From Octopus vulgaris (taxonomy: Eukaryota): 64,000 nt of DNA. The stretch lies in assembly GCA_951406725.2 (NCBI GenBank), contig OX597824.1:25358001-25422000 (forward strand), in the 5' to 3' direction. The notes under the pieces were generated by a model. The model was not told the DNA's origin. It worked only from the letters and a program-made list of their open reading frames with translations, and ran no database searches. Below are positions 43,872 through 45,392 of the stretch, piece by piece. A program made the translations under genes and the position numbers. Position 1 is the stretch's first letter. Each line of letters opens with the position of its first letter.

Positions 43872-45392
43872 TCACAAGACAATGATAAAAAGGAAATGCA
43901 ATTTATGATCGTCTGTCTTCTTGACTATATCCGGGTCTGATCCTTGGTCTCTGCTGTTTATTATTTTTTGGATGATACCCTTGATTGTGCCCTCGATATT
44001 GCTCTGCATTTTGCTCTCCGATGTGCCCAATATTTTACCATTGATTTTGCCCTCGATATTGCTCAGCATTTTGCTCTCCGATGTGCTCAATATTTTAACA
44101 TTGATTTTGCCCTCGATCTTTTTTATTCCCGATGTCTCCGAGATTGTACCATTGATTCTGCCCTGGATATTGCCCTGCATTTCGCTCTCCGAGGTGTACA
44201 AGATTTTAGCATATATCTCTGCATTTTGCTCTTCGGTGATATCTCTCTGCATTTTGCTCTCCGGTGTGTCCAAGGTTTTATCATTGATAGTGACCTTCAT
44301 CTTTTTCAGGACTGCAACCTCATCTCCTGTACCCTCAATTGGGTACAAGATATTTCCCTCCGTATCTCCGAGTTCGAATATGCCCGTTACTGTGCCCGTG
44401 AATGTGCCCTTGATTGTGTCTGTGACGGTCCCTTTGTATTTAAAAGACCTGTTGATTATATCCTTCAGGGCGTCTTTGAGATCTTGATTGCCCTTATTCT
44501 TTAATATCTCCTCCAAAATACTATCTGTAAAATAAGTAAATTCCTCCATATCTTTGACCCTTTCGAAAATTTTCAGGTGTTCATCTGCGGATTTCAAAGC
44601 CTCGCCAAGTAGTTTATTAAGCAGGAGAACAGTTTTGTGTTGGTAAGCCGTGTTATGTAGTCGATATCGTGAATAAAACATATCATAGAAATTTTTAAGC
44701 GTTTTGTCTCTGTAGCATATTTCACCATCTATTACTTTGGACATTTTCATCATTCTTTCGTGATCAAAGGATGTTCCAATGCCAAGAAAATGGGAATCTC
44801 TGGCCAGGTAATCCCATTTATCAACGTCGATGTTATAGTCTGCATTGTTGACGATTTGGTAAAGAAAGTTTGGTCTCTGAGATTTTTCTGGTTTACCAGT
44901 AATGAGATGTTTTATGAAATCAATTTCATCAGACTTAAGTTCTCCTTTAATATGTGGGTTCTTTTTAAAAAGATGCTCCAACATTTTACATGATGCATCT
45001 TCATGTTCCCACTTTTTACCTCCATCTTCCTTGAGATACTCGTTGATAATTTCTTGAAAGGCATGAGAAAAAGGCGCATGTCCTAAATCATGACACAAAC
45101 CAGCGATTTCAACACACAGTATATCTCGATCAGATATTTCCAGACCGGAATCTTGCTGCTTAAGATGGCGAATCATTTTCCCAGCTAGATGACATGTTCC
45201 CAGACAATGCTCAAATCTATTATGTGAAGCTGATGGATAAACGTAATAACACAAACCTAGTTGTTTGATATTACGTAATCTCTGAAATTGTACTGTATTA
45301 ATAATTTTAACACAGAGTGGTGAAAATTGCATGGATCCATGAATAGCGTCCTGAAAAACCTGATCCGGACGTGTATCGTTTGTGTTAGCCAT
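43872..45392 (-). CDS. SAMHD1: Intronless SAMHD1-like HD-domain dNTP triphosphohydrolase, copy 1 (no SAM domain; C-terminus truncated and replaced by 12 element-derived residues)
   Basis: DAIHG, QFQRLRNIKQLG, HNRFEHCLG, GLCHDLGHAPFSH, WEHE, DVDKWDYLARD, RYRLHNTAYQHK. Homology to copy 2 ends at 43910; the DYG..NP..FY / LPEKF tail is missing. Confidence 0.93.
   Translation of the reverse strand: MANTNDTRPDQVFQDAIHGSMQFSPLCVKIINTVQFQRLRNIKQLGLCYYVYPSASHNRFEHCLGTCHLAGKMIRHLKQQDSGLEISDRDILCVEIAGLCHDLGHAPFSHAFQEIINEYLKEDGGKKWEHEDASCKMLEHLFKKNPHIKGELKSDEIDFIKHLITGKPEKSQRPNFLYQIVNNADYNIDVDKWDYLARDSHFLGIGTSFDHERMMKMSKVIDGEICYRDKTLKNFYDMFYSRYRLHNTAYQHKTVLLLNKLLGEALKSADEHLKIFERVKDMEEFTYFTDSILEEILKNKGNQDLKDALKDIINRSFKYKGTVTDTIKGTFTGTVTGIFELGDTEGNILYPIEGTGDEVAVLKKMKVTINDKTLDTPESKMQRDITEEQNAEIYAKILYTSESEMQGNIQGRINGTISETSGIKKIEGKINVKILSTSESKMLSNIEGKINGKILGTSESKMQSNIEGTIKGIIQKIINSRDQGSDPDIVKKTDDHKLHFLFIIVL
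43976..44290 (-). repeat. Coding ~60-bp (20-aa) tandem repeats inside SAMHD1-like copy 1
   Basis: ttgatt(g/t)tgccctcgatattgctc(t/a)gcattttgctctccgatgtgc.caatatttta.ca units at 43981 and 44041, a 51-bp unit at 44101, and degenerate units from 44152; peptide KILxTSESKMQSNIEGxIxG. Confidence 0.9.

Follow-up and report, generated by a model that had tools for sequence, protein, structure and literature searches.

A predicted beta-rich arm in intronless SAMHD1-like genes of Octopus vulgaris, likely grown in place from a 12-base coding repeat

SAMHD1 of mammals is an antiviral, nucleotide-destroying enzyme. The window analysed here, the whole 64,000-nucleotide stretch of Octopus vulgaris DNA, contains two intronless SAMHD1-like genes on the minus strand, with start codons at 45392 (copy 1) and 52783 (copy 2) and an in-frame stop nine codons upstream of the ATG. 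They belong to two tandem units (43333-55898) with a period of approximately 7.4 kb that are 96.5% identical over 4.66 kb (43910-48523 versus 51299-55898), the first two units of a seven-copy array reaching about 60 kb beyond the window end. A 14.7-kb duplication (98.6% identity) pairs window positions 38493-53210 with DNA about 58.4 kb downstream and repeats the truncated copy 1 exactly; it is either a recent segmental duplication or an unmerged haplotype. Elsewhere in the window are a tandem array of 152-bp units, 98% identical, derived from part of an apparent retroelement ORF end (6049-7476), a trypsin-like exon (14877-15392), a Helitron-like Pif1 helicase fragment (15645-16136), a mariner-type transposase fragment (27049-27849) and a weak GIY-YIG match (585-1316).

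Neither window copy is whole as assembled; the intact copies lie elsewhere, one shortly beyond the window and one on contig C15. Copy 1 (43872-45392) has its catalytic residues intact, and its own sequence ends at 43910, after which the ORF continues for 12 codons into unrelated downstream DNA. The junction (43906-43918) marks a deletion of about 2.25 kb, equivalent to 49048-51299 of the next unit and with 5 bp of microhomology, which took the 3′ end of the gene and with it the AHFDYG motif and the C-terminal strand. An inverted repeat of 346 bp (43010-43351 and 43575-43918, 92% identical) directly adjoins this junction. Copy 2 (51117-52783) is complete as DNA and carries a frameshift within the insert described below: because a poly-A run at 51508-51515 (minus strand) has two extra A, the AHFDYG at 51287 and the stop at 51117-51119 are both in a second frame. 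The run has eight A here, six in copy 1 and nine in the intact copy, and only in-frame lengths are seen in probable RNA contigs; the 8-A run is either an assembly error or a pseudogenising slip. A previous reading made from the sequence only had placed AHFDYG after the insert in both copies, which must be amended, copy 1 having none and copy 2 having it out of frame.

The insert is an in-frame segment of the SAMHD1-like ORF between RSFKYKG (F codon at 44444, minus strand) and RDQG (43952). The native strand FKYKGTVT (44421-44444, minus strand), corresponding to human F454-Q461, contains K-G-T-V codons that are the likely seed of the repeat. The insert proper follows KGTVT and runs up to RDQG, 156 codons of degenerate 12-bp repeats in copy 1 (43953-44420, minus strand), with ESKM-type units beginning at 44279, 44207, 44096 and 44036; in copy 2 (51342-51811, minus strand) it is two bases longer. 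A 60-bp tandem array on the minus strand at 43976-44212 (4.1 copies, 75% matches, each unit made of five 12-bp subunits) has its counterpart in copy 2 at 51365-51603, bearing out the 60-bp DNA repeats seen earlier, and each 60-bp unit is predicted to form about one beta-strand and a turn. From FKYKG to FDYG the spacer is 180 aa with the insert, compared with 46 aa in human SAMHD1, 34 in the canonical octopus gene and 19-21 in sister paralogs, so that the much longer segment claimed relative to human is confirmed. The same reading had several of the differences between the window copies falling in the repeat units. They do occur there, eight of 492 nt differing in the insert, all eight altering a residue and six lying in the last 120 bp, but the HD part differs at 24 of 948 nt and the insert is therefore not enriched in differences.

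Protein and DNA searches place the insert at eight loci in the genome, all in intronless SAMHD1-like genes, with seven in the array at 25.40-25.48 Mb of C11 (the window's contig) and one on C15. As assembled, the C11 copies comprise one intact gene (555 aa, just past the window), two that are 3′-truncated and four that are frameshifted; the C15 copy (532 aa) is intact. This C15 copy (L031, 48.3346-48.3383 Mb) is a DNA-level duplicate of about 3.7 kb, with both flanks approximately 97% identical to C11 and the same dispersed repeat bounding it on both sides. An HD query gives 43 genome matches. About 15 near-complete or split insert-less intronless copies occupy C11:24.96-25.20 Mb, and a single canonical SAMHD1 gene, 451 aa and without the insert, is on C20. 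SAMHD1-like genes number more than 20 (C11:24.96-25.48 Mb, C15:48.34 Mb and C20:8.88 Mb), all intronless, the canonical C20 gene included, and exon-like SAMHD1 matches on other contigs were absent. In a tree of HD parts, from which two outgroup proteins missing the anchor motif were dropped, the insert copies form one clade (96/99) within an octopod-specific group (100/100) that includes insert-less O. bimaculoides and Argonauta proteins.

The spacer could be measured in 115 of the 120 best homologues. It is 30-49 aa long in 88 of them and 12-21 aa in octopod sisters; only the O. sinensis (180 aa) and C15 (153 aa) proteins are of the insert type. Other long spacers occur in P0015 (85 aa), P0066 (87), P0046 (103) and P0086 (127), and in the last three the sequence is unrelated to the octopus insert where inspected. 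P0086, a goby SAMHD1-like protein, shows an independent tandem expansion of a helical unit of about 13 aa (residues ~330-440) just before the same FKYxG strand, which may be real or a gene-model artefact. A protein search with the insert region returned four proteins, three carrying the names O. vulgaris or O. sinensis and a fourth that corresponds to window copy 2. In a profile search of 1.84 billion representatives there were eight matches, two from octopus and six from other sources that are unrelated low-complexity repeats (E 1e-8 to 8e-4). Because the homologue spacers and both searches agree, the insert is no common invertebrate feature, a point that the sequence-only reading had proposed for checking; its claim of novelty in the SAMHD1 family also stands, since among the proteins searched only those of O. 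vulgaris and O. sinensis match. The insert is lineage-specific, within two species' records, its absence from other octopods (e.g. O. bimaculoides) referring to protein collections. In the titles and abstract openings of literature on octopus, cephalopod or mollusc SAMHD1, in which few subscription papers are covered, no paper on the expansion or the insert was found.

The HD part aligns with human SAMHD1 (PF01966) up to FKYVG with an E value of about 1e-75. All six insert copies aligned keep the metal ligands H167, H206, D207 and D311 as well as R164, H210, H215, H233, K312, Y315, R366, H370, Y374 and Q375, and the modelled protein has the two-lobe SAMHD1 fold (Z 44.7 to 7UJN and 9MR6); judged by these residues, the insert-bearing paralog is likely a still active dNTPase. 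At the AL2 site R333, R352, K354 and N358 are kept, N119 is Q or H and K523 is R or I (residue roles as given in the part of PMC7045340 consulted). The guanine-specific AL1 site is altered, with Q142, R145 and R451 kept, D137 replaced by N and K116 by Q or R, a state common to insert-less paralogs. The available portion of PMC7311409 reports that human SAMHD1 D137N takes XTP instead of GTP as activator with normal catalysis. Asn occupies this guanine-specificity position at 45297-45299 of the window (copy 1 codon 32), in all octopod paralogs aligned and in P0043, the canonical protein of Argonauta; in the canonical C20 gene the residue is Asp. The helix-13 dimer-dimer set keeps N358 and D361 and has H364Y and R372T (roles again from what was seen of PMC7045340), H364 and R372 varying in the canonical octopus gene too. 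Because D137N, K116Q, H364Y and R372T are common to the insert-less sisters, they predate the insert.

A SAM domain was not detected by Pfam in the octopus copies, and the T592 tail is missing, the chain ending near human residue 557. The insert had been suggested to replace the absent SAM domain, an idea that fails because the canonical octopus ortholog (451 aa) lacks both SAM and insert and the insert-less paralogs lack SAM too. Several non-vertebrate SAMHD1s are without SAM, and fungal and nematode SAM-less orthologs are still tetramers, according to the sections seen of PMC12042053 and PMC10485159.

Two insert-less groups depart from the catalytic pattern. L036, L040, P0005 and P0006 (aligned) and L037, L038 and L041 (from translations) carry D207N, H215Y and H233N, and some also D311N; this sub-clade is likely catalytically dead by its residues and provides candidate decoys. 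Its ORFs are open, it is shared with O. bimaculoides, and L036 versus L040 gives omega ~0.5. L033, L034, L042 and P0009 have Y374C and Q375K in the substrate pocket, which suggests an altered substrate choice.

Twenty of the 24 sequencing runs listed hold part of the stretch, 18 of them half its words or more. Four small runs from four studies, RNA by guess or unlabelled and seen as contigs only, all have contigs that bridge both the HD-insert and the insert-C-terminus borders, and in these contigs no joint skips the insert; one loose contig end at the insertion point fits the insert-less paralogs L033, L034 and L042. The possibility that the insert is spliced out, raised with the original observation, thus found no skipping joint in the contigs of these four probable RNA runs. 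Variable copy number, by comparison, had been anticipated and is observed: one of the C11 copies carries a further 60-bp unit, and the O. sinensis models of 534, 555 and 574 aa differ by whole units. The C15 insert is 27 aa shorter. Length changes preserve the frame in the intact copies, the O. sinensis models and the RNA-like contigs. RefSeq O. sinensis isoform X2, the shortest model, is two units shorter than X1 and still has most of the insert; it looks chimeric between paralogs because its 3′ end fits a different paralog type. The short X2 isoform and the young, error-prone array could suggest an artefact of assembly or annotation, or else an intron, yet the insert is in the records of two species and in contigs of four studies with no skipping joints, and X2 itself keeps most of the insert and looks chimeric, which leaves this explanation the barest chance.

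The periodicity of the DNA bears on where the insert came from. In the intact copy of the array (L030) the insert has autocorrelation z-scores of 8.2 at lag 12 and 7.4 at lag 60 relative to 500 codon shuffles, with peaks at multiples of 12 bp; the HD part has neither a 12- nor a 60-bp period. The consensus of ten x-G-x-I/V units, with the native seed left out, encodes K-G-T-I. When this consensus is compared with the 1,371 nt of the insert-less gene L032, the best match falls on the gene's native K-G-T-V codons, where the insert sits in other copies; this site ranks 2-3 in L033, L035 and L039 and is outside the top four matches in L036, L040 and the C20 gene. Protein and DNA searches found the insert nowhere else in the genome beyond the SAMHD1 copies. 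No foreign donor was found in the genome, among the 1.84 billion representatives or in a short-protein search (0 of 7,988 scored); the best PDB sequence match (E 0.027) is a low-complexity repeat, and the ESM Atlas gave a best score of 0.86 on unnamed clusters and no usable named match. Given the 12-bp period, the unit's match to native codons and the lack of a donor, we infer local amplification: the insert likely grew in place from a 12-base repeat of the gene's own K-G-T-V codons. The earlier description of it as grafted is accordingly not supported, since the repeat fits codons native to the insertion site and the searches gave no donor. A piece captured from a transposon, virus or bacterial beta-repeat protein would account for the superficial likeness to G-x-I-x-G repeat proteins and for weak profile matches, two of them with bactofilin matches. 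This origin is highly improbable: the insert is at no other place in the genome, the six non-octopus matches among 1.84 billion representatives are unrelated low-complexity repeats, and the unit fits native codons.

A full-length AlphaFold model, built from a 69-sequence alignment whose insert columns hold only three to four close sequences, has pLDDT 79.8 overall and ~90 or more in the HD core. It aligns with human SAMHD1 113-557 at Z 44.7 over 398 residues, leaving ~157 unaligned. The native strand is extended (317-333) and is accompanied by strands at 423-438, 444-456 and 465-480, with block pLDDT 58-87; residues 342-414 are under 50, and the insert modelled alone gives six strands at pLDDT 41. 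Predicted strands alternate, with Ile/Gly on one face and Lys/Glu/Asn/Thr on the other. Between C11-type and C15 proteins the I/G positions are kept in 16 of 17 cases and the others in 19 of 38 (p=0.002). The modelling thus predicts, with moderate confidence, that the insert is an arm of antiparallel amphipathic strands extending the C-lobe, and the beta-rich character first read from the sequence is upheld in the AlphaFold strands as a prediction. A closed beta-barrel is only a lead from the models. In the Foldseek check that had been called for, the insert model matched nothing in PDB at E up to 0.001; in VIA-align the best rows are small beta-barrels, whose Z of at most 7.1 does not rise above what the tool gives for unmatched models. 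A bactofilin-like beta-helix was considered and rejected, with no Pfam hit (PF04519 or other beta-solenoid profile, E up to 1) and no model support; with regard to a parallel solenoid fold, the models have long strands and short turns, at low to moderate confidence. A resemblance of the insert to HET-s or RHIM amyloid motifs was not borne out by any Pfam profile match.

A conserved hydrophobic face needs a packing partner, and this could make the arm structural: the Ile/Gly face would pack on another subunit's arm or on the C-lobe, stabilise the oligomer and offset lost C-lobe and C-terminal helices. The replaced helix-13 interface residues H364 and R372 (roles from the accessible part of PMC7045340) and a protein ending at about human residue 557 are in keeping with this, while the same losses occur without any insert in about 15 sister paralogs and two Argonauta proteins, and a purely structural role leaves fast change on the outer face unexplained. 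We consider it improbable, though well short of negligible.

Selection was estimated by pairwise NG86 and GY94-type maximum likelihood fits, with pairwise tests within one genome. Between the intact C11 gene and the one on C15, the flanks show 27 differences in 881 nt (~3%) and the coding DNA 182 in 1581 nt. Non-synonymous and synonymous changes number 87 and 6 in the HD part (Fisher p 8e-5; omega 4.9, p=7e-5), 52 and 5 in the insert (Fisher p 0.013; omega 4.0, p=0.005) and 34 and 2 in the C-terminus (Fisher p 0.021; omega 14, p=0.009); on the 110 unambiguously aligned codons of the insert omega is 10.6 (p=0.0007). The HD parts of the intact C11 copy and window copy 1 give omega 4.4 (p=0.016), and the window pair gives 2.5, which is not significant (p=0.17). 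Seven insert-less pairs include five with omega 0.41-0.76, one with 0.24 and one very close pair without synonymous change; the insert-less pair L033/L034 also rejects omega=1, upward. The dN/dS of ~4-5 in the insert-bearing clade is gene-wide, including the insert, and so is not insert-specific. Of the 47 HD codon changes that are non-synonymous, 37 fall on the C15 branch. When five C11 copies are compared, 0-3 sites differ over the first 99 codons of the insert, against 16-32 non-synonymous sites in the HD part, the variation clustering at residues 121-180 and 271-300 and not in the insert. That the C11 and C15 proteins differ several times more than their flanking DNA is likely due to pathogen conflict.

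These figures are also what a tolerated passenger must explain, that is, a minisatellite that arose by chance in an exposed loop of superfluous gene copies, with selection acting on the HD surface. The repeat is of local origin, about half of the insert is modelled at low confidence, its length varies by 20-27 aa, six of the seven insert-bearing C11 genes are disrupted in the assembly, and the C11 variation at residues 121-180 and 271-300 lies outside the insert, all of which a passenger would accommodate. Omega above 1 inside the insert (4.0, or 10.6 on 110 unambiguous codons with p=0.0007), the I/G face kept at 16/17 versus 19/38 and the frame-keeping length changes noted above tell against it, and we hold it unlikely while giving it more weight than the structural role. 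The sensor, decoy or oligomerisation arm put forward in the sequence-only reading are all candidate roles; given the positive selection, a surface shaped by conflict is favoured over an arm with a structural role alone.

The explanation that we prefer, with a chance we put at about even, is that an in-frame coding minisatellite arose from the gene's own K-G-T-V codons and now forms an amphipathic beta arm on the C-lobe of a likely active dNTP-destroying SAMHD1 paralog, serving as a fast-changing conflict surface against a pathogen or selfish element. Octopods first expanded an intronless SAMHD1 clade in which the C-lobe loop had shrunk to 12-21 aa, as the present genes display. Slippage or unequal crossover would then have amplified a 12-bp unit in this loop, and afterwards a 60-bp higher-order unit, as the periodicity and the unit match suggest. 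From the x-I-x-G repeats long strands are predicted, Ile/Gly lining one side and Lys/Glu/Asn/Thr the other; they would add to the native sheet and might roll up into a small barrel. In one pair of intact genes, amino-acid change is far in excess of synonymous and flanking change in both HD part and insert, with the catalytic residues and the Ile/Gly face staying fixed. The variable face may finally shield the enzyme from, or bind, a foreign antagonist or target. Meanwhile the array would be expanding by birth-and-death, the arm's inner face constrained and its outer face and the HD surface helices changing fast. This pattern of a fixed inner and a fast outer face is like that of restriction factors escaping or binding foreign proteins (PMC6744909; PMC2151084, each seen in part). 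An immune role of SAMHD1 in molluscs is only hinted at: from the parts of the papers available, one oyster family resistant to disease shows over-representation of a SAMHD1 transcript (PMC6971885), and SAMHD1-like proteins of octopus skin mucus vary with captivity and senescence (PMC11431876).

A bolder version, which we offer as tentative, is that a folded beta-sheet or small-barrel domain arose de novo from a 12-bp minisatellite within an antiviral enzyme in a single lineage of Octopus and that positive selection already acts on it as a module for binding pathogens or shielding against antagonists, its size tuned strand by strand via 60-bp units. Should the arm fold, nature would have supplied a datable example of a new domain being built from a 4-codon repeat, one for which the seed codons, sisters that lack the insert and forms with 3, 4 and 5 units are all available. 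An undescribed arms race over dNTP depletion in cephalopods is indicated by the more than 20 intronless SAMHD1 genes, by the young clade with its dN/dS of 4-5 and by the naturally occurring D137N at the allosteric site; it would bear on invertebrate antiviral immunity and on octopus aquaculture.

The known system closest in fold is SAMHD1 itself (human 7UJN/6TX0, Rhizophagus 9MR6 and C. elegans ZK177.8 6PWY, Z 42-45), and the octopus proteins share the absence of SAM with fungal and nematode orthologs (PMC12042053 and PMC10485159, as far as seen). They differ from human SAMHD1 in a spacer of 153-200 aa (46 in human), in having no C-terminal helix or T592 tail and in D137N, K116Q, N119Q, H364Y, R372T and K523R, and in that more than 20 intronless copies stand in place of a single gene. 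For the arm, small antiparallel beta-barrels are the nearest class: BBn6 (9XZT), a designed six-stranded barrel according to the portion seen of PMC12478100, matches at Z 7.1 (rmsd 3.7, 88 of 90 aligned), NspA matches the insert-only model at Z 7.1, and OprF is also of this class. Amphipathic strands with inward Gly/Ile recall barrel glycine kinks (PMC12478100, same portion). Unlike those barrels, the insert has a model at pLDDT 41, a Z at background and no sequence homology, and its variable unit number is as compatible with an open meander as with a closed barrel.

TRIM5 loops show short tandem duplications. Duplicated restriction factors (TRIM5/TRIM22 clusters and mammalian SAMHD1) resemble the octopus genes in tandem gene expansion, dN/dS above 1 and surface loops that vary in sequence and length (PMC2151084 and PMC6744909, in the parts consulted), and antagonist-driven positive selection has been described for mammalian SAMHD1 (PMC6744909, in part). 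The antagonist is hypothetical in octopus, and the loop differs from theirs in being a domain-sized predicted beta arm built from a 12-bp unit. With coding minisatellites, i.e. in-frame VNTRs, the octopus insert shares tandem periodic DNA that is in frame and variable in unit number, with 12- and 60-bp periodicity, gain and loss of units and unit-to-unit homogenisation. What sets it apart from them is a predicted regular beta structure in an enzyme lobe together with an excess of amino-acid change.
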